In this document: positions 1 to 23,265 of the stretch, one piece after another
Layout of the letters: each line of letters opens with the position of its first letter
Numbering within the stretch: position 1 is the first letter of the stretch
From: Escherichia coli
GTDB lineage: Bacteria; Pseudomonadota; Gammaproteobacteria; Enterobacterales; Enterobacteriaceae
Assembly: GCF_041248615.1 (NCBI RefSeq)
Contig: NZ_CP158426.1
Reading direction: 5' to 3' (one strand)
Length of the DNA stretch: 64,000 nt
The notes under the pieces: model-generated
What the model was told of the DNA's origin: nothing
Seen by the model: the letters and a program-made list of their open reading frames with translations, nothing else
Databases searched by the model: none
Made by a program: the position numbers and the translations under genes

Positions 1-1006
1 CCAGCGGCATCGATTTTTTCATCTGACGAGCGACTTCAGCGGCGTCATCAATGATGATGCGGTAATGGCGGCGCGCGTTTTCACCCAACGTATGCACGAC
101 AAACTCGTCCAGTACGCGGAAGTAGTCGGCGCTCTCTTTCGGGCCGGTGAGGATCAATGGTAAAACCTGATCTTTGTTGGCCGGGTTCATTAAAATTCCC
201 AGCAAATACAGCAACTCTTCTGCCGTACCCACACCGCCAGGGAAGATAATGATACCGTGAGCGATACGGACAAACGCTTCCAGACGTTTTTCGATATCCG
301 GCATGATGATCAATTCGTTGACCAGCGGGTTAGGCGGTTCAGCGGCGATAATCGACGGCTCTGTCATACCAATAAAACGACTGTCTTTGTAACGCTGCTG
401 TGCGTGTCCGACCGCAGCGCCTTTCATCGGCGCTTCCATCGCTCCCGGACCACAGCCGGTGCAGATATTCAGCTCACGCAGGCCCAGCTGATTCCCGACG
501 CGACGGGCATACAAATACTCGTTTTCGTTAATTGAGTGCCCGCCCCAGCAGACCACCATATTTGGCGCTTCACCAACATGCAGCGCGCGAGCGTTACGCA
601 AGATGGAAAAGACCAGGTTAGTGATGTGGACGGAGTTGTCGAGATTCAGGTTGGGAAAACGAACAGTATTATGGATTTGCCCGTAAACGAAGAGAATGTC
701 GCGCAGAACCGCGAACAAGTTGGCCTGCAAAGCGCGAATAATTCGCCCATCGACAAAAGCCTCTTCCGGGGGATTAATCAGTTCCAGCTTTACGCCGCGT
801 TCACGGCGCAAGACGTTAATATCGAAATTTTCAAAACGAGACAGCAATTCTTTGCTGTTATCGGTCAAACTACCGGAGTTCAGTACGGCAAGTGAACAGT
901 TGCGAAACAGTTGATAGAGGTCGCTGCTGGCGGTGCGTTTAAGCATATCCACTTCCAGCTGCGACAACATATCCATGGAGCCAAGCGGGCTAATATGTGT
1001 AATCAA
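1..1006 (-). CDS. ppnN: Nucleotide 5'-monophosphate nucleosidase PpnN (LOG family), C-terminal part cut by window edge; probable TTG start at 1004-1006
   Basis: Minus-strand translation reads [19 protein letters not shown]...; frame open to window start; AGGAG 8 nt upstream of TTG; alternative ATG starts at 975 or 969. Confidence 0.8.
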
Positions 1007-1966: not shown

Positions 1967-2033
1967 GTTTCACCGTCATAAACCAGATAAACTAAACGAC
2001 AAGTGTATCTGGTTTAAGTGAAGAGAGAAATTA

Positions 2034-2579
2034 GTGGACGATTTGACCGCACAAGCCCTGAAAGATTTTACTGCACGCTACTGCGATGCGTGGAATGAAG
2101 AGCATAAAAGCTGGCCGTTGAGTGAGGAACTGTACGGCGTTCCTTCACCGTGCATTATTTCAACCACCGAAGACGCCGTATACTGGCAACCCCAGCCGTT
2201 TACCGGGGAACAAAATGTAAACGCGGTTGAACGCGCTTTTGATATTGTGATACAACCCACAATTCATACCTTTTATACGACTCAGTTTGCCGGGGATATG
2301 CACGCGCAGTTTGGCGATATTAAACTGACATTGCTGCAAACCTGGAGTGAAGACGACTTCCGTCGGGTGCAGGAAAATCTGATTGGTCATCTGGTGACTC
2401 AGAAAAGGCTAAAACTGCCGCCCACGCTATTTATCGCGACGCTGGAAGAAGAGTTAGAGGTGATCTCGGTGTGTAATCTCTCCGGTGAAGTGTGCAAAGA
2501 GACGCTGGGAACACGTAAACGGACGCATTTAGCCTCAAATCTTGCGGAATTCCTTAATCAACTTAAGCCTCTTCTGTAA
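2034..2579 (+). CDS. syd: SecY-interacting protein Syd (GTG start)
   Basis: 181-aa [23 protein letters not shown]...; divergent from queF. Confidence 0.85.
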
Positions 2580-2598
2580 TCCAAATACCCCATCTGGT

Positions 2599-2616
2599 TG
2601 TGAGAGATCTCTTACA
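2599..2616. promoter_or_regulatory. 18-bp palindrome TGTGAGAGATCTCTTACA, candidate UvrY (BarA/UvrY) binding site upstream of csrB
   Basis: Near-perfect inverted repeat about 180 bp upstream of csrB 5' end; matches the recalled UvrY box. Confidence 0.55.
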
Positions 2617-2789
2617 GACTCTGTAGGAGATCGCCAGGAAATAAGCGAATACTTAAAAAAATAAGAATCGTTATTTTCATTTAAAATCAATATATTGCTT
2701 GTCAATTCTTAACTTTCATATGAAATTTTCCTTAAGGCATTGTCTGTAAGCGCCTTGTAAGACTTCGCGAAAAAGACGATTCTATCTTC

Positions 2790-3155
2790 GTCGACAGGGA
2801 GTCAGACAACGAAGTGAACATCAGGATGATGACACTTCTGAAGGACACACCAGGATGGTGTTTCAGGGAAAGGCTTCTGGATGAAGCGAAGAGGATGACG
2901 CAGGACGCGTTAAAGGACACCTCCAGGATGGAGAATGAGAACCGGTCAGGATGATTCGGTGGGTCAGGAAGGCCAGGGACACTTCAGGATGAAGTATCAC
3001 ATCGGGGTGGTGTGAGCAGGAAGCAATAGTTCAGGATGAACGATTGGCCGCAAGGCCAGAGGAAAAGTTGTCAAGGATGAGCAGGGAGCAACAAAAGTAG
3101 CTGGAATGCTGCGAAACGAACCGGGAGCACTGTGAATACAGTGCTCCCTTTTTTT
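2790..3155 (+). ncRNA. csrB: CsrB small RNA (CsrA-sequestering), 5' end approximate
   Basis: About 365 nt with many repeated CAGGATG / AGGA(U)G GGA motifs; ends in hairpin 3123-3148 plus T7 run 3149-3155; located between syd and yqcC. Confidence 0.85.
3123..3155 (+). terminator. Intrinsic terminator of csrB
   Basis: 11-bp stem GGGAGCACTGT/ACAGTGCTCCC, loop GAAT, followed by TTTTTTT. Confidence 0.8.
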
Positions 3156-3200
3156 ATTCCTGCTATCCTTCGCGGCAGTTTTTCTTATTGAGGTTGCTTT

Positions 3201-3530
3201 ATGACCACTCATGACCGCGTTCGTCTCCAGCTGCAGGCGCTTGAAGCATTACTGCGTGAACATCAGCACTGGCAAAACGATGAACCCCAGCCGCATCAAT
3301 TTAACAGTACCCAACCGTTCTTTATGGACACCATGGAACCACTGGAGTGGTTGCAGTGGGTGCTGATCCCGCGAATGCACGATTTGTTAGATAACAACCA
3401 GCCGTTACCGGGCGCTTTTGCCGTCGCACCCTATTATGAAATGGCGCTGGCGACGGACCACCCGCAACGCGCGCTTATTCTGGCTGAGCTGGAAAAACTG
3501 GATGCTCTTTTTGCGGATGATGCGAGCTAA
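3201..3530 (+). CDS. yqcC: DUF446 family protein YqcC
   Basis: 109-aa ORF; synteny csrB-yqcC-truC. Confidence 0.75.
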   Translation: MTTHDRVRLQLQALEALLREHQHWQNDEPQPHQFNSTQPFFMDTMEPLEWLQWVLIPRMHDLLDNNQPLPGAFAVAPYYEMALATDHPQRALILAELEKLDALFADDAS

Positions 3531-4312
3531 TGCTGGAAATACTCTATCAGGATGAATGGCTGGTTGCGGTAAATAAACCCTCCGGCTGGCTGGTTCACCG
3601 CAGCTGGCTGGATCGCGACGAGAAAGTAGTGGTCATGCAAACCGTGCGTGACCAGATAGGCCAGCATGTGTTTACTGCTCATCGTCTGGACCGACCAACT
3701 TCTGGTGTGTTGTTGATGGGATTATCCAGCGAGGCCGGACGGCTGCTGGCACAACAGTTTGAACAGCACCAAATCCAGAAACGTTACCATGCGATTGTGC
3801 GCGGCTGGTTGATGGAAGAAGCAGTTCTGGATTATCCACTGGTGGAAGAACTGGACAAAATCGCTGATAAATTTGCCCGCGAAGATAAAGGCCCACAGCC
3901 AGCAGTGACGCATTATCGCGGTCTGGCGACCGTAGAAATGCCGGTAGCGACCGGACGTTACCCGACCACGCGCTACGGCCTGGTGGAACTGGAGCCGAAA
4001 ACCGGACGTAAGCACCAGCTCCGTCGCCATCTTGCCCATTTGCGCCACCCGATTATTGGCGACAGCAAACATGGTGATTTACGCCAGAATCGCAGCGGTG
4101 CTGAACATTTTGGCCTTCAGCGGTTAATGCTGCATGCCAGTCAGTTGTCATTGACGCATCCTTTTACTGGCGAGCCGCTGACTATTCACGCGGGCCTGGA
4201 CGACACCTGGATGCAGGCGTTATCACAATTTGGCTGGCGGGGTCTGCTTCCTGAAAATGAAAGGGTTGAGTTCAGTGCGCCATCGGGTCAGGATGGAGAG
4301 ATAAGTTCCTAA
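3530..4312 (+). CDS. truC: tRNA pseudouridine(65) synthase TruC
   Basis: 260-aa ORF with RluA-family motifs (HRLDRPTSG); start overlaps yqcC stop. Confidence 0.85.
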
Positions 4313-4329
4313 TCCAGGGAGAAAACGGT

Positions 4330-4779
4330 ATGGCGGAAATTGGTATTTTTGTCGGCACTATGTACGGAAATTCGCTGTTAGTGGCGGAAGAAGCGGAAGC
4401 AATTCTGACCGCGCAGGGCCACAAAGCAACGGTATTTGAAGATCCTGAATTAAGCGACTGGCTGCCCTATCAGGATAAGTATGTTCTGGTGGTTACGTCC
4501 ACGACCGGGCAGGGCGACCTTCCTGATAGCATTGTGCCGCTCTTTCAGGGAATCAAAGATACCCTGGGCTTCCAGCCGAATCTGCGTTATGGCGTGATTG
4601 CGCTCGGCGACAGTAGTTATGTGAATTTCTGCAATGGCGGCAAACAGTTCGATGCCTTGTTGCAGGAACAGAGCGCTCAGCGGGTTGGCGAAATGCTGTT
4701 GATTGACGCCAGTGAGAACCCGGAACCGGAAACGGAATCAAATCCGTGGGTCGAACATTGGGGCACGCTGTTGTCCTGA
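4330..4779 (+). CDS. yqcA: Flavodoxin-like protein YqcA
   Basis: 149-aa ORF with flavodoxin-like N-terminus ([12 protein letters not shown]). Confidence 0.8.
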
Positions 4780-17004: not shown

Positions 17005-18657
<1,653 letters not shown>

Positions 18658-18728: not shown

Positions 18729-20042
<1,314 letters not shown>

Positions 20043-20061
20043 GTCTGACTTTATCTGATTT

Positions 20062-20093
20062 AAAAATGCCAGCCTTCGGGCTGGCATTTTTTA
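20062..20093. terminator. Bidirectional intrinsic terminator between convergent eno and ygcG
   Basis: Stem ATGCCAGCC/GGCTGGCAT, loop TTCG, flanked by A-run and T-run. Confidence 0.75.
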
Positions 20094-20101
20094 TGGTTGA
20101 G

Positions 20102-20974
20102 TTACCAGCGACCGGACGCGCCGCCACCGCCAGAAGAACCGCCCCCGCCGCTAAATCCGCCGCCACTTGAGCCGCCACCGGAACCGCTGTTGTCTGAATG
20201 ATAACTTCTACCAGATGCTTTTTTCTGAAGTACACATAAACAGGTAAAGACCATAATGGTGGTGAAAGTAAAAAAGAAGAAAAATACAGCAATGGAAAAA
20301 GTTTTATCGGAGAACAGGAATAAATCTAAAAGATAGATTGCTGAAATACAGACACTGCTTTTACATGCGCGACAAAAATTACTGCCTTGATGAAAAAACC
20401 AGAAAGGGAAGAACATCACTGCAAATACCCAAAAAATAGCAAAGTAATAATGATCACTGGAAGACGCTGATTCAATTTCTGAAGGATTAGCCGGATATTG
20501 GTGTTGTGAAGTGAGTTGGTTATTCAAAGCGTTTATAGCTAGCTCTAATCCCTGAGCTAATTTTTGTTGTTTAAATGCGGGTATCATGTTGCTACGGATG
20601 ATATCTCCAGCCAGAGCATCGGTTACCTTTTCTTCCAGCCCATAACCTACCTGGATGCGGACAGTACGATCCGACCAGGCAACAATGATCAGTATCCCAT
20701 CATTACGTTTGGCATCTCCTAAACGCCAATTGTCAAAAACCCGTGTAGCATATTTTTCAATTGTCTCGTCTTTGGTTGTGGGAACAATTAATACAGCAAT
20801 TTGCACTTGGGTATTATTGAAAATAGATTCTAACTTGTACGTCAGTTCTTTCTTTTCTTGTGAGTTTAAGCTACTCGTAAGATCCGTAACTTGTTGCTGT
20901 AATGATGGGACAATAGTTGGTTGGGCTGCAACAAAGGAACACACGAATGTGAATATTAGTATGAAATAGCGCAT
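20102..20974 (-). CDS. ygcG: TPM-domain membrane protein YgcG with Gly/Ser-rich C-terminal tail
   Basis: ORF 20102-21019; probable start at internal Met ([19 protein letters not shown], signal-peptide-like) giving about 290 aa; C-terminal [21 protein letters not shown]. Confidence 0.7.
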
Positions 20975-21267
20975 TATAAATGTCCCATTAAAGCTGGATA
21001 AATAAATTGACGGCGGCATCGGTAATTTGAGATTCGTTATAATTAAAAACGAACACAGAAAAAATAAGTATAATTTTGGTGAATGTTTTTGACATGATTA
21101 AATCCCTTTACTTTATTTATTTCTGACATAATACGTTACTCCCTTTTATTATTAACGATCTGTTTCTCATTTTTCTTTAAACCTGCCTGTAACAGAATGT
21201 TAATAAGACATGATTGTTGTGGCAGGATCTGCAATAATTAACAATTATCCACTTCACAGAGAATGCT

Positions 21268-21939
21268 ATGCAGTACCCGATTAACGAGATGTTCCAGACC
21301 CTGCAAGGTGAGGGTTACTTTACCGGCGTCCCCGCCATTTTTATTCGTTTACAGGGATGCCCGGTTGGCTGTGCCTGGTGCGACACCAAACACACCTGGG
21401 AAAAGCTTGAGGATCGGGAAGTCTCCCTTTTCAGCATTCTGGCGAAGACCAAAGAGAGTGATAAGTGGGGGGCGGCGAGCAGTGAAGACTTGCTGGCTGT
21501 CATTGGTCGCCAGGGATACACCGCGCGGCATGTGGTGATTACGGGTGGTGAGCCTTGCATTCATGATTTGCTGCCACTGACTGACCTGCTCGAAAAGAAC
21601 GGTTTTAGCTGCCAGATCGAAACCAGTGGTACTCATGAGGTACGCTGCACACCGAATACCTGGGTTACCGTATCGCCAAAGCTGAACATGCGCGGCGGCT
21701 ATGAAGTGTTGTCACAGGCACTGGAGCGAGCCAACGAAATCAAGCATCCAGTGGGACGCGTGCGTGATATTGAAGCACTGGATGAACTACTGGCAACACT
21801 GACCGATGATAAACCGCGAGTCATTGCGCTGCAGCCGATTAGCCAAAAGGAAGATGCTACTCGTTTATGTATCGATACGTGCATTGCGCGCAACTGGCGT
21901 TTGTCGATGCAAACACATAAATATTTAAATATTGCCTGA
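21268..21939 (+). CDS. queE: 7-carboxy-7-deazaguanine synthase QueE (radical SAM)
   Basis: 223-aa ORF with CxxxCxxC-type cysteine cluster (GCPVGCAWCDT). Confidence 0.85.
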   Translation: MQYPINEMFQTLQGEGYFTGVPAIFIRLQGCPVGCAWCDTKHTWEKLEDREVSLFSILAKTKESDKWGAASSEDLLAVIGRQGYTARHVVITGGEPCIHDLLPLTDLLEKNGFSCQIETSGTHEVRCTPNTWVTVSPKLNMRGGYEVLSQALERANEIKHPVGRVRDIEALDELLATLTDDKPRVIALQPISQKEDATRLCIDTCIARNWRLSMQTHKYLNIA

Positions 21940-22277
21940 TTAAACATTTATAAGCGTTATAAATGGGTGGAACCTGTAAAGACTTCTACTCATTTATATT
22001 CTTTGTCGCCTCTAAAAAACCTCCATTTTGCCCATCCTGGACTAATCATTATCATTTTCTACAAATTCTGTGGCGTTAATTTTTCGTTGGAGTGAAAATT
22101 ATTACGTCGGAGTTTGGTGGATTTTAGTCGGTATAGAATTACTTTAAATATTTGGCTTTTCAATCAATGAATTAAGTGCTCTTTAACATAATGGATGTGT
22201 TGTTTGTGTGTTTCTGTTAAGTTGGTAGATTGTGACTGACTTAAAAAATCAATAATTAATAATAGGTTATGTTTAGT

Positions 22278-22672
22278 GAGTTCCCCGCGCCAGCGGGGAT
22301 AAACCGGCTGATGCGGTTCTATCACCACCACAAATTATGAGTTCCCCGCGCCAGCGGGGATAAACCGCAAATACGCGCGAGTGGCTAACCTGGAATCATG
22401 AGTTCCCCGCGCCAGCGGGGATAAACCGGCGCGGACGATAATCAGGGGCAGGCAGGGCACGAGTTCCCCGCGCCAGCGGGGATAAACCGGAAATCCAATA
22501 TTAACGTGGTGTTTTCAAAACGAGTTCCCCGCGCCAGCGGGGATAAACCGCGTTTAGCTCCGCAATGCTGGATATCACTGATGAGTTCCCCGCGTCAGCG
22601 GGGATAAACCGTATGGGAAACAGTAGCAACGGGCACACTGGCGGAGTTCCCCGCGCCAGCGGGGATAAACCA
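22278..22672 (+). CRISPR. Orphan type I-E CRISPR array (CRISPR-II / 2.1): 7 repeats, 6 spacers of 32 bp, leader on the left
   Basis: 29-bp repeat GAGTTCCCCGCGCCAGCGGGGATAAACCG at 61-bp period; repeat 6 has the GCGTCAG variant; last repeat ends ..AAACCA; AT-rich leader with GTTGGTAGATTGT at 22221-22233. Confidence 0.95.
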
Positions 22673-23140
22673 CCATATAACCCGTAATCTCTTTCTAAAG
22701 TTTTTATATTAGCAGTACTCGTAATAAGCAACATATCCACGTAACACCTCATGTTCAAAATAGCTCTCCATATATGAGAAGTTCACAATTATCGATACAA
22801 AAAATCAAATTTAATTAAAGTGTTAGTTGTATAATACTTAAATCATTAAGAAATTATCATATATTATTTTTTTAATATTGAATTGATGTTTGTTAGTTTT
22901 TTCTTTAGGATAATAGATTGTTTTTTAAGCTTATTATTCATTGATTAAGTAATAAATCTGGAAATTTGTCTTTGTTTTGAGGCTAATGAGTGGTTTTACA
23001 TAACCGTCTCTATAGACTGTTGATGAATAGTTCTTATGAATAAAGATATCCAGTTCATACTTTAAATGAAAATTGATAAAGTACGGTTTGCGTTGTCTTT
23101 TATTCTAAGGACATCGAGTGTAGTTAATATTCCTTGTAAC

Positions 23141-23265
23141 AACAGGGATAAACCGAACTAGTTAAAGTTTTTATTATGTTCCCTGCATCAGCGGGGATAA
23201 ACCGGACTTGTTATCATTTTTTAAGTTGTCGAACTTATGTTCCCCACGTCAGCGGGGATAACCAT
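23141..23265 (+). CRISPR. Degenerate CRISPR remnant (CRISPR 2.2-2.3-like): partial repeat, two degenerate repeats, one 32-bp spacer
   Basis: ..AACAGGGATAAACCG (23141-23155); ATGTTCCCTGCATCAGCGGGGATAAACCG (23176-23204); 32-bp spacer; ATGTTCCCCACGTCAGCGGGGATAACCA (23237-23264). Confidence 0.6.

Follow-up and report, generated by a model that had tools for sequence, protein, structure and literature searches.

Between eno (18744-20042, + strand) and queE (21268-21939, + strand), the window, which is the whole 64,000-nt stretch of Escherichia coli DNA that was analysed, carries a 305-codon open reading frame (ORF) on the opposite strand (20102..21019, 305 aa). Its position between the two genes and its reversed orientation relative to both, as given in the preliminary description, are confirmed by the ORF list. 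The frame contains ygcG, an already known and annotated E. coli gene for a membrane protein of unknown function. RefSeq assigns the gene name ygcG and the product "TPM domain-containing protein" in the identical region of E. coli strain 135; the products in use for the gene are this one and "YgcG family protein", and curated naming places it in the YgcG family. A chance ORF is excluded by the match to the Pfam TPM_phosphatase family (126 bits versus a cut-off of 22.1). The initial identification as YgcG, a TPM-domain membrane protein, is upheld by Pfam, RefSeq, the paralogues, AlphaFold2, and Foldseek. The K-12-type protein (WP_001268451.1) shares the locus, the 290-aa length, the architecture, and the tail, with 95% amino acid identity; 9 of the 15 differences lie within aa 161-290. 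No experiments on YgcG itself were found in the literature that mentions the protein. Features of the locus are collected in the table, with residues numbered for the 290-aa form.

Table. Features of the ygcG locus in window coordinates
Feature	Coordinates	Strand	Basis
Bidirectional intrinsic terminator hairpin, eno and ygcG	20062..20091	.	A-run, GC stem, T-run; RNA fold
ygcG CDS (290 aa + stop)	20102..20974	-	RefSeq in identical and K-12-type strains; paralogues; Pfam
C-terminal tail, aa 251-290, predicted cytoplasmic	20105..20224	-	composition, pLDDT, positive-inside analysis
17-residue family C-terminal motif, aa 274-290	20105..20155	-	alignment of relatives
Three predicted transmembrane helices, aa 174-193, 199-220, 226-250	20225..20455	-	AlphaFold2, hydropathy
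TPM domain, aa 29-152, predicted periplasmic	20519..20890	-	Pfam PF04536, AlphaFold2, Foldseek
Predicted Sec signal peptide, aa 1-17, then QP	20924..20974	-	hydropathy, AlphaFold2, paralogue layout
263-nt junction segment, reduced haplotype only	20798..21060	-	rest of lemA remnant, 13-nt spacer, ygcG codons 1-59
35-codon ORF, yqcG homologue, lemA 5'-end remnant	20988..21095	-	DNA and peptide alignment
Upstream in-frame ATG (305-aa alternative), rejected as start	21017..21019	-	inside small ORF, other frame
A5 run	21086..21090	-	three-way DNA alignment, K-12-type yqcG translation
Divergent yqcG/ygcG - queE control region, AT-rich	21130..21267	.	GC 0.31-0.35

YgcG would be a 290-aa inner-membrane protein consisting of a signal peptide, a periplasmic TPM fold (∼aa 20-158), three helices, and a cytoplasmic tail, with a disordered acidic linker predicted to join the TPM fold to the three transmembrane helices. 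The signal-peptide-like N terminus that had been noticed downstream of the second start is supported by hydropathy, the -3/-1 rule, the paralogues, and the relatives. It combines a basic residue (R2), a 14-residue hydrophobic core, and V-A-A at positions -3 to -1; a Kyte-Doolittle peak of 2.1 spans aa 3-23, and AlphaFold2 places a helix at aa 2-13. The paralogues share this layout (SVFA/IQ, AFA/EQ, and VLA/QQ). From hydropathy and the -3/-1 rule, we infer cleavage after aa 17.

The presence of a TPM-like soluble region, a reading that had been staked beforehand on a TPM domain hit, is borne out by Pfam PF04536, which matches at 126.1 bits (gathering threshold 22.1, E=1.1e-36) over profile positions 1-124 of 125. 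In the AlphaFold2 model of the 290-aa protein (mean pLDDT 83.9), confidence reaches 95-98 over aa 20-155. The model has the alpha/beta sandwich of the TPM fold, with Foldseek TM-scores of 0.90 to 5ANP, 0.89 to 7TBR, 0.77 to 3PVH, and 0.74 to 4OA3; the Foldseek matches of the domain comprise BA41, 7TBR, AtTLP18.3, Psb32, LMTP1, and 6ADQ_J. Thirteen of the 15 core residues of YgcG-like proteins (D31, E73, W83, G86, G93, R106, E108, G110, G112, E114, G115, D119, P132, F134, and G142) are kept. At the other two positions, Q108 replaces a glutamate found in 96% of relatives and E115 replaces a glycine found in 91%. Judged from conservation, these substitutions may have altered or weakened the function of YgcG.

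Kyte-Doolittle peaks of the 290-aa form lie at aa 3-23, 176-196, 203-221, and 224-251, and AlphaFold2 places three helices in full-length and truncated models alike, in agreement with the hydrophobic segments originally noted after the TPM region. The number of K+R residues per loop is 2.0, 0.2, and 2.0 among 54-71 relatives, which positions loop 1 and the stretch after TM3 on the inside. By these simple rules of hydropathy and charge, the TPM domain is predicted to be periplasmic and the tail cytoplasmic.

Comparison with other genomes traces ygcG to an ancestral operon between queE and eno, made up of lemA and three TPM genes, in which it was the third of the TPM genes. Genes for LemA and TPM proteins occupy this site in 1455 of 5426 complete E. 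coli genomes (27%), most with all three TPM genes, and the four-gene operon is seen in loci L003-L006. At the same site, E. albertii has lemA and three TPM genes, while Klebsiella and E. marmotae have lemA and one. The order of lemA followed by TPM genes recurs in Leptospira, Paraburkholderia, Acinetobacter, and Yersinia; in Brenneria, lemA adjoins a divergent TPM gene. Other strains and species carry two or three TPM genes in the lemA-TPM operon, and ygcG is the sole TPM gene in the window. Directly upstream, in the same orientation, an intact LemA (PF04011) gene is replaced by the 35-codon remnant, and no LemA-like sequence was found elsewhere in the window. This reduced haplotype, with lemA cut down to the small ORF and ygcG alone, is present in 3947 of the 5426 genomes, this type included; the body of lemA is missing from 3971.

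The DNA on either side of the 263-nt junction can be traced to the four-gene strains. Window positions 19700-20797 are 97% identical to their third TPM gene and eno, and positions 21061-21500 are 91-92% identical to queE and the first 35 nt of lemA. The third TPM gene of the L004 type (e.g., protein P0068) is orthologous to ygcG from codon 60 onward (97% DNA identity) and has the same tail, terminator, and place beside eno. In contrast, the first 59 codons of ygcG are 41-46% identical to it, and upstream of ygcG here there is no intact copy of lemA, TPM1, or TPM2. The junction itself has no close match in the four-gene-operon strains and is present in the same 3947 of 5426 genomes. No source for it was found. 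The N-terminal 81 aa retrieved E. coli fragments alone, and a contig scan gave only E. coli, plus a 413-bp contig of a Corallococcus assembly that resembles contamination. In E. albertii, E. marmotae, and Klebsiella, BLAST detected just a single 68-nt match (71%). The YgcG-type membrane region is wholly unlike the canonical TPM3 of E. albertii, E. marmotae, and L003.

The 13-nt spacing shared after lemA and yqcG had raised the idea that a deletion fused the first TPM gene to the third to create ygcG. This was rejected, since the first 59 residues are 41-46% identical to TPM3 and 27-37% identical to TPM1; YgcG is nearest to the TPM3 lineage in every segment. A foreign origin on the grounds of low GC content is not supported: the whole Escherichia operon is AT-rich (GC of 41% in lemA, 44%-49% in the TPM genes, and 41% in ygcG). 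On this comparison, lemA has shrunk to a 35-codon remnant in this strain type, the first two TPM genes are gone, and YgcG is left an orphan without its usual LemA partner. Any function that needs LemA and the two other TPM proteins would be lost here.

The origin of the remnant is visible in its alignment. The ATG of the small ORF aligns with that of lemA, and its first 35 nt together with the upstream region are ∼92% identical to lemA-type strains. Aligned to the N terminus of LemA, its peptide scores 37, compared with 13.2 ± 5.1 for shuffled sequences, 1 of 2000 of which reached this score. BLASTP of YqcG against LemA gave no match, and the homology is visible only in DNA alignments and in shuffle-controlled global peptide alignments. 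In the identical strain, positions 20988-21129 carry a RefSeq annotation as a pseudogene with a frameshift. In K-12-type strains, the run has four A residues, which puts an upstream ATG (window 21129-21127) in frame with the lemA-derived sequence, and the product is the 46-aa YqcG; with five here, this protein is not encoded as such. YqcG appears to have been built from the signal-peptide end of lemA and former 5' untranslated sequence.

Downstream, the hairpin shared by eno and ygcG folds at -20.3 kcal/mol (z = -6.3), and 0 of 200 shuffles were as good. A scan with consensus promoter and terminator patterns missed it, and returned 4 promoter-like sites versus 3.8 expected. In K-12, the region homologous to the divergent control region shows a ChIP-seq peak for sigma-S and an RpoS site from genomic SELEX; it also includes a "promoter island" associated with H-NS and is bound by PhoP (PMC4447067, PMC5493296, PMC3661553, PMC4974570). 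ygcG would be expressed together with yqcG from this stress-responsive, AT-rich region shared with queE.

With lemA and two paralogues lost, ygcG of the reduced haplotype might have no function left and be decaying into a pseudogene. Its partner genes are deleted, and its dN/dS of 0.36 is far above that of its neighbours (0 for eno and 0.05 for queE). The two substitutions at near-invariant TPM positions point the same way, as do signs of independent decay elsewhere, such as an IS1 deletion in locus L010, a locus with lemA, one TPM gene, and unrelated DNA (L009), and partial matches (H22 and H23). Many truncated YgcG fragments are found in databases, and the region is AT-rich and H-NS-associated. 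However, 3918 genomes keep the ORF intact across at least 80% of the junction. The dN/dS is below 1, and with 12.5 synonymous versus 16.5 non-synonymous changes the synonymous share is above the neutral expectation of ∼1:3.5. The C-terminal motif is intact, as are nearly all conserved TPM residues, and the YgcG-type membrane region is not degenerate sequence, since it has relatives in Brenneria and Yersinia. Constraint on the gene is weak, but the gene is not dead, and a functionless relic is unlikely.

Analogous to its structural relatives, the TPM domain of YgcG is probably a non-catalytic accessory or assembly module, tied to envelope stress. The domain would attach to some membrane complex or envelope component from the periplasmic side. 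Models for this are Psb32/TLP18.3 with photosystem II (PSII), CcoZ with the cbb3 oxidase, the TPM subunit of the mycobacterial CIII2CIV2 supercomplex, and MOLO-1. TPM proteins have been described as accessory factors of membrane complexes (PMC11237479, PMC8267372, 10.1101/2025.05.08.652833). The full account, in which ygcG encodes a 290-aa protein that is the lone survivor of the operon and serves as a TPM accessory module, is favoured with some reservation. A literature search for the function of LemA with TPM proteins found nothing.

The best solved relative is BA41 of Bizionia argentinensis (PDB 5ANP; E=1e-22, TM-score 0.90, 36% identity over the TPM domain), in which, as in YgcG, the domain is followed by a hydrophobic stretch and a Gly-rich tail; in BA41 that tail ends in GGGGASGGW. 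Its host, however, is a flavobacterium, and identity to YgcG outside the TPM core is low. Psb32/TLP18.3, which acts in PSII assembly and repair, shares the TPM fold (Foldseek E 3e-6 to 9e-5), lies on the non-cytoplasmic side of the membrane, and is accessory rather than catalytic (10.1101/2025.05.08.652833). In contrast, E. coli has no photosystem, and the YgcG family, unlike Psb32/TLP18.3, has the Gly motif and three helices. Chain J of mycobacterial CIII2CIV2 (6ADQ) has the same fold (Foldseek E 4e-3, TM-score 0.69 to the target), and it and C. jejuni CcoZ are accessory subunits of membrane complexes (PMC8267372). These respiratory TPM subunits are ∼17% identical to YgcG and belong to the DUF5130 subfamily, for which YgcG falls below the cut-off. 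Membership in Psb32 (NCBIfam NF047379, equivalog; 39.2 bits versus a cut-off of 160), MOLO1 (PF17175; 13.9 bits versus 27), and DUF5130 (PF17174; 15.8 bits versus 27) was rejected. To our knowledge, no link between YgcG and an oxidase has been described.

The Pfam name TPM_phosphatase suggests instead an enzymatic role, with YgcG acting as a phosphatase or nucleotidase in the periplasm. YgcG keeps the conserved acidic residues D31, E73, E114, and D119, and BA41 has been published as having ATPase/ADPase activity, according to a citation in PMC11237479. Phosphatase or nucleotidase activity is, however, disputed for the family (PMC11237479, 10.1101/2025.05.08.652833); reported activities are low, and the literature speaks of "competing hypotheses" (PMC11237479). 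In PSII intermediates and respiratory supercomplexes, the TPM proteins that have been solved or modelled are subunits without a catalytic role, and YgcG has a glutamine in place of E108. A catalytic role is considered quite improbable, and an accessory role is preferred.

The two candidate starts listed in the preliminary description, at 21019 and 20974, are both present in the ORF. The start was described as ambiguous, but RefSeq, the paralogues, and the distant relatives all back the second, and it can be resolved: the best-supported start is the ATG at 20974-20972, the RefSeq start in identical and K-12-type strains. In the alignment with the three paralogues, which all start with MR..., this ATG falls in column 1 and M1 and R2 are invariant; ∼100 distant relatives begin at the same place. 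GGGA sits 8 nt upstream, and 13 nt separate the ATG from the stop codon of the small ORF, the same spacing as between the lemA stop and the TPM1 start. Initiation at 21019 would yield 305 aa, with a 15-residue extension ahead of the hydrophobic core. The frame is open from 21019 here and in K-12-type strains, and some gene callers give even longer fused forms (P0004, 341 aa). Yet this ATG lies within the yqcG-like ORF in another frame, overlapping its codons ACC GAT GCC (T D A), and inspection of the 25 nt upstream found no Shine-Dalgarno-like or purine-rich motif. Given these features and those of the rival ATG, use of the upstream start is very unlikely.

The tail of YgcG begins with a basic juxtamembrane QKKASGR, followed by a Gly/Ser linker. 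The low-complexity, Gly/Ser-rich composition first reported is indeed present, with 16 Gly and 10 Ser in the last 34 residues, and pLDDT is below 50 for aa 251-271. The end of the tail, in contrast, is, as aligned, a conserved, family-defining terminal motif common to thousands of proteins. It matches the family consensus GGGGxxGGGGASGxW, and YgcG has the combination of helices and motif that marks the family. G278, G279, G284, G285, S287, and W290 are invariant in an alignment of 103 sequences, which was limited to sequences ending in W, so that W290 is invariant there by construction; with no such filter, W is the last residue in 112 of 116 relatives. The mean top-residue fraction is 0.85 in the motif compared with 0.54 in the TPM domain, and the motif is kept in relatives of 27%-42% overall identity.

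The earlier suggestion of a slippage-prone repeat does not hold for this tail, whose last 17 residues are conserved in the family. Comparison of length among strains used 60 rows spread evenly over 4866 E. coli genomes, of which ∼50 cover the full query; only one of these differs (H186, 3 nt shorter in a stretch that includes the tail), and the remainder are equal in length. Tandem Repeats Finder reports a weak 12-nt unit in 2.3 copies (score 35), and the perfect repeat of variable length that defines a simple-sequence contingency locus is absent. A slippage-prone contingency tail of strain-variable length, to which runs of GGC/GGT codons, the 12-nt array, and rare variants (one residue fewer in P0004 and substitutions in P0001 and P0006) might point, can be set aside as having negligible probability in view of the heterogeneous codon use within the tail, its near-uniform length, and the retention of the motif in distant relatives.

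In the full-length AlphaFold2 model, the conserved motif forms a confident beta-strand, which is gone when the N-terminal 167 residues are removed. This dependence on aa 1-167 does not sit well with a tail in the cytoplasm and a TPM domain in the periplasm. A speculative reading of the models, to which a low probability is given, is that the motif would be a beta-strand ligand for a TPM fold, not a spacer, and may dock on a TPM protein without a signal peptide. Such a protein is encoded by the third gene of the lemA-TPM-TPM operons sampled in Paraburkholderia, Leptospira, and Acinetobacter, and is presumably cytoplasmic. If the tail docks on it, the module would couple periplasm and cytoplasm across the membrane. 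The Escherichia operon has no signal-less TPM gene; if docking is true, the three tails of this operon, like the one remaining here, would either lack a partner or have another use.

By itself, the main finding re-identifies an annotated E. coli gene and matters little. The reading of the tail is corrected, from a low-complexity repeat to a conserved terminal motif. ygcG and the small K-12 "envelope stress" gene yqcG are the leftovers of a lemA-TPM operon, and YqcG may provide a small, concrete example of a short gene arising from a decaying one. Experiments on YgcG or YqcG of K-12 therefore concern an orphaned fragment. The operon is still intact in UTI89, Nissle 1917, and O157:H7, and it is in these strains that the complete system can be studied.

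The ORF list places the window on the E. coli chromosome, and ygcG in it is a correctly identified, previously annotated gene. The list recovered the coordinates of the preliminary description, its two candidate start codons (ATG 21019 and ATG 20974), the N-terminal residues read from the second of them, the C-terminal tail and its placement of the gene between eno and queE, opposite in orientation to both. The TPM region proposed there was borne out by a Pfam search, in which the product matched TPM_phosphatase (PF04536) over the whole profile (126 bits against a cut-off of 22.1, E=1.1e-36). A 1401-bp segment spanning ygcG matches E. coli strain 135 with 100% identity; the RefSeq annotation of that strain has ygcG, "TPM domain-containing protein", with its start at the position of ATG 20974. 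The analysis settles the start, re-reads the C-terminal tail as a conserved motif and shows that the locus is what is left of a lemA-TPM operon.

Features of the ygcG locus and of its product
Feature	Position	Strand	Remarks
pyrG	17020-18657	+	ORF list
eno	18744-20042	+	ORF list
Terminator, strong, bidirectional	20062-20091		RNA fold -20.3 kcal/mol, z = -6.3; separates ygcG and eno
ygcG ORF	20102-21019	-	ORF list
ygcG aa 282-290, end of C-terminal motif	20105-20131	-	
ygcG codon 115 (E)	20630-20632	-	G in 91% of relatives
ygcG codon 108 (Q)	20651-20653	-	E in 96% of relatives
yqcG homologue, 35-codon ORF	20988-21095	-	start is exact homologue of lemA ATG
yqcG, frameshifted pseudogene	20988-21129	-	RefSeq, this strain type
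queE	21268-21939	+	ORF list
CRISPR array, then ygcE	beyond queE		ORF list
N-terminal helix	aa 2-13		AlphaFold2
TPM alpha/beta domain			AlphaFold2, pLDDT 95-98
Disordered linker	aa 159-171		AlphaFold2
Three helices	aa 174-193, 199-220, 226-250		AlphaFold2
Second disordered stretch	aa 251-271		AlphaFold2
Ordered C-terminus	C-terminal to the second disordered stretch		AlphaFold2

The CRISPR array between queE and ygcE comprises seven copies of GAGTTCCCCGCGCCAGCGGGGATAAACCG with a 61-nt period (22272-22672), and three degenerate repeat copies lie ~480 nt farther on (23121-23265). RefSeq has a CRISPR feature at the same place in the identical strain.

The start of ygcG, which had been described as ambiguous, is better placed at ATG 20974, giving a protein of 290 aa. 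RefSeq uses this codon in both the window genotype and the K-12 type, which has the same layout with another allele. All three paralogous TPM proteins that other strains encode at this locus start with MR and align at column 1 with M1-R2 of the 290-aa form, and the N-termini of distant relatives fall within a few residues of the same position. GGGA ends 8 nt upstream of ATG 20974, and the 13 nt that separate it from the stop of a small upstream ORF equal the distance from lemA to the first TPM gene of other strains. Translation from ATG 21019 would add 15 codons, whose frame is open in all strains examined; however, this ATG lies inside the small ORF in another frame (ACC GAT GCC, T-D-A) and is preceded by no purine-rich motif, and with RefSeq, paralogues and distant relatives all placing the start at or near ATG 20974, it is very improbable.

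The small upstream ORF is a relic of lemA. Aligned with the LemA N-terminus (M..F..I.IF...YN..Q..D..VN), its peptide scores 37, compared with 13.2 +/- 5.1 for shuffled sequences, of which 1 in 2000 reached it; it lacks the lipobox cysteine and the entire LemA domain. The 35-codon frame from ATG 21095, the original lemA ATG, is open, is preceded by AAGGGA and retains the hydrophobic segment and C-terminus of YqcG. In K-12-type strains YqcG has 46 aa and is named "cell envelope stress response protein" by RefSeq. The window carries a run of five A (21086-21090), the run length of lemA, where the K-12 type has four; in the latter, loss of one base brings an ATG farther upstream (window 21129) into frame with the lemA-derived codons. 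Because this loss recruits the upstream ATG, the first 12 residues of YqcG come from sequence that serves as 5' leader in strains with lemA. Annotated yqcG is missing from roughly one third of evenly spaced genomes with the reduced haplotype (lemA remnant and ygcG only), and wherever sequences were compared the reason was the A5 run.

The whole ygcG region was matched in only ~72% of complete E. coli genomes; in the remainder, a LemA family gene adjoins queE. In strain WL297, lemA encodes a 200-aa protein whose signal is of the lipoprotein type (LSGC). Three TPM genes come next, with 312, 382 and 301 codons, and all their products share the terminal motif of YgcG. In a second operon form (L004-L006, the same locus in other strains), the third gene has 290 codons. 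Window 19700-20797, which runs from eno through the terminator to codon 60 of ygcG, is 97% identical to L004, and window 21061-21500, which takes in the start of lemA (35 nt), the adjoining intergenic region and queE, is 91-92% identical; the 263 nt between these stretches have no close match in lemA-operon strains. This junction occurs in 3947 of 5426 complete E. coli genomes. The interior from lemA to the third TPM gene occurs in 1455, at a coverage of at least 80% in 1103 of them, its carriers including UTI89, Nissle 1917 and O157:H7; sensitive blastn with the lemA body found it in the same 1455 of the 5426 and no others.

The order queE, lemA, three TPM genes, eno is found in E. albertii, while the same site holds lemA, a gap and one TPM gene in E. 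marmotae and lemA with one TPM gene in Klebsiella quasipneumoniae. The closest relatives of YgcG outside E. coli (43% identity), from Brenneria goodwinii and Yersinia pseudotuberculosis, also adjoin lemA, and TPM genes lie beside lemA on replicons of Leptospira, Paraburkholderia and Acinetobacter. Because outgroups carry lemA with one or more TPM genes, the arrangement in the window is derived, lemA having been truncated, two TPM genes lost and ygcG left alone.

Two further E. coli loci are other decayed forms of the operon. In one (L009, 5023-5385), lemA and a single TPM gene are accompanied by ~430 nt of AT-rich DNA that is unrelated and contains an ORF of 120 codons; in the other (L010, 2579-3886), IS1 has inserted and the DNA from lemA to within the second TPM gene is deleted. 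Relative to the canonical third gene, ygcG is strongly divergent in its first 59 codons and in its membrane region. A chimeric origin of ygcG from the first and the third TPM gene was rejected by segment-wise comparison, every segment being closest to the third-gene lineage. The mosaic alleles P0056 and P0068, the latter being the 290-codon third gene, show recombination between allele classes, with boundaries at the conserved lemA start and the conserved tail-coding sequence. The YgcG variants P0001 (459 aa), P0005 (299 aa) and P0056 (292 aa) include forms in which the domain-to-membrane region is duplicated internally and a mosaic allele whose middle derives from the canonical third TPM gene, which indicates frequent recombination among the repeated TPM genes.

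Elsewhere, a Pseudomonas aeruginosa megaplasmid (p2014S05-249-1, 2008-4640 of locus L011) carries two YgcG-family genes between flhB and flhA, inside the flagellar export gene cluster and without lemA nearby. In Y. pseudotuberculosis (L019, 5308-6843), lemA and a YgcG-like gene lie as a pair within a type VI secretion cluster, flanked by VgrG/FGE-sulfatase-like genes on one side and PAAR/TssM genes on the other; the TPM protein also matches Pfam YxzE. A 413-bp contig of very low coverage in a Corallococcus aberystwythensis assembly encodes part of a protein with 94% identity to YgcG of E. coli and most probably represents E. coli DNA contaminating that assembly.

The AlphaFold2 model of YgcG (102 relatives in the alignment) has a mean pLDDT of 83.9, and the hydrophobic segments noted earlier correspond to its three helices after the TPM domain. 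Foldseek against the PDB returned TPM domains as all top matches: BA41 (TM-score 0.90), followed by Rhom172_1776, PG_0361, AtTLP18.3, BA42, Psb32, LMTP1 and chain J of the mycobacterial CIII2CIV2 supercomplex; a PDB sequence search agreed (BA41, E=1e-22). The signal-peptide-like N-terminus reported from the second ATG holds as a prediction, with R2, a 14-residue hydrophobic core and V-A-A before Q18; it has the features of a Sec signal peptide, predicted to be cleaved, and no lipobox. In relatives with three predicted helices, K+R averages 2.0 in the first loop, 0.2 in the second and 2.0 directly after the third helix, and the segment ahead of the first helix is acidic. From this charge distribution, the positive-inside rule predicts a periplasmic TPM domain and a cytoplasmic tail.

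Searching 1.84 billion cluster representatives yielded 20,962 relatives at E<=1e-3. Terminal W is present in 112 of the 116 top relatives of similar length, with endings GSW, GRW, GGW or GKW, and in 100 of the 116 Gly makes up 40% or more of the final 30 residues. An alignment of 103 sequences shows no variation at G278, G279, G284, G285 and S287 and more than 90% conservation at several adjacent positions; W290 does not vary either, only sequences ending in W having been admitted. Conservation averages 0.85 over the last 18 positions versus 0.54 in the TPM domain. The Gly/Ser-rich composition described earlier stands, but the suggestion of a slippage-prone low-complexity repeat does not: Tandem Repeats Finder detected only a weak 12-nt x 2.3 array, and of 60 matches drawn evenly from 4866 matching E. 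coli genomes, ~50 covered the full query, one being 3 nt shorter and the rest equal. Little length variation and a family-wide conserved ending show that the tail is a conserved terminal motif after a variable Gly/Ser/Arg linker.

Residues 281-289 form a beta strand in the full-length model (pLDDT 79-92), which is gone when residues 168-290 are modeled alone (pLDDT 46-55), the two alignments being of unequal depth. As the strand vanishes, it may depend on residues 1-167, TPM domain included, presumably through the TPM sheet; we treat this as a lead only. It conflicts with the predicted topology, which sets the motif and the TPM domain on opposite sides of the membrane. Three lemA-TPM-TPM operons were sampled outside Escherichia, and in each the TPM protein encoded by the third gene lacks a signal peptide, which would make it a topologically possible partner for the tail; the Escherichia operon encodes no such protein.

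The window and K-12-type alleles of ygcG differ at 29 nucleotides and 15 amino acids. From these small counts dN/dS is 0.36 (0.42 for aa 1-160 and 0.33 for aa 161-290), compared with 0 for eno and 0.05 for queE, and synonymous changes, also few, exceed neutral expectation. Around codons 108 and 115, where YgcG has Q and E, the motif in relatives is RIEVGYGLEG, and the other E. coli TPM paralogues likewise have E and G at these two positions. The gene is weakly constrained, not obviously dead.

In K-12, the intergenic region between queE and yqcG/ygcG contains a sigma-S ChIP-seq peak, a strong RpoS genomic-SELEX site and an H-NS-associated promoter island and is bound by PhoP, and deletion of yqcG raises queE expression (PMC4447067, PMC5493296, PMC3661553, PMC4974570). 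Its GC content in the window is 31-35%. A literature search found no study testing YgcG, or LemA together with TPM proteins. Elsewhere, the TPM proteins CcoZ of C. jejuni and MSMEG_4692 of mycobacteria are associated with terminal oxidase complexes (PMC8267372), and a comparative-genomics study groups TPM with chaperone-like PspA partners (PMC11237479). Given these roles of TPM-fold proteins, it is possible, rather than probable, that YgcG acts as a non-catalytic accessory factor on the periplasmic side of the inner membrane, perhaps linked to envelope stress.
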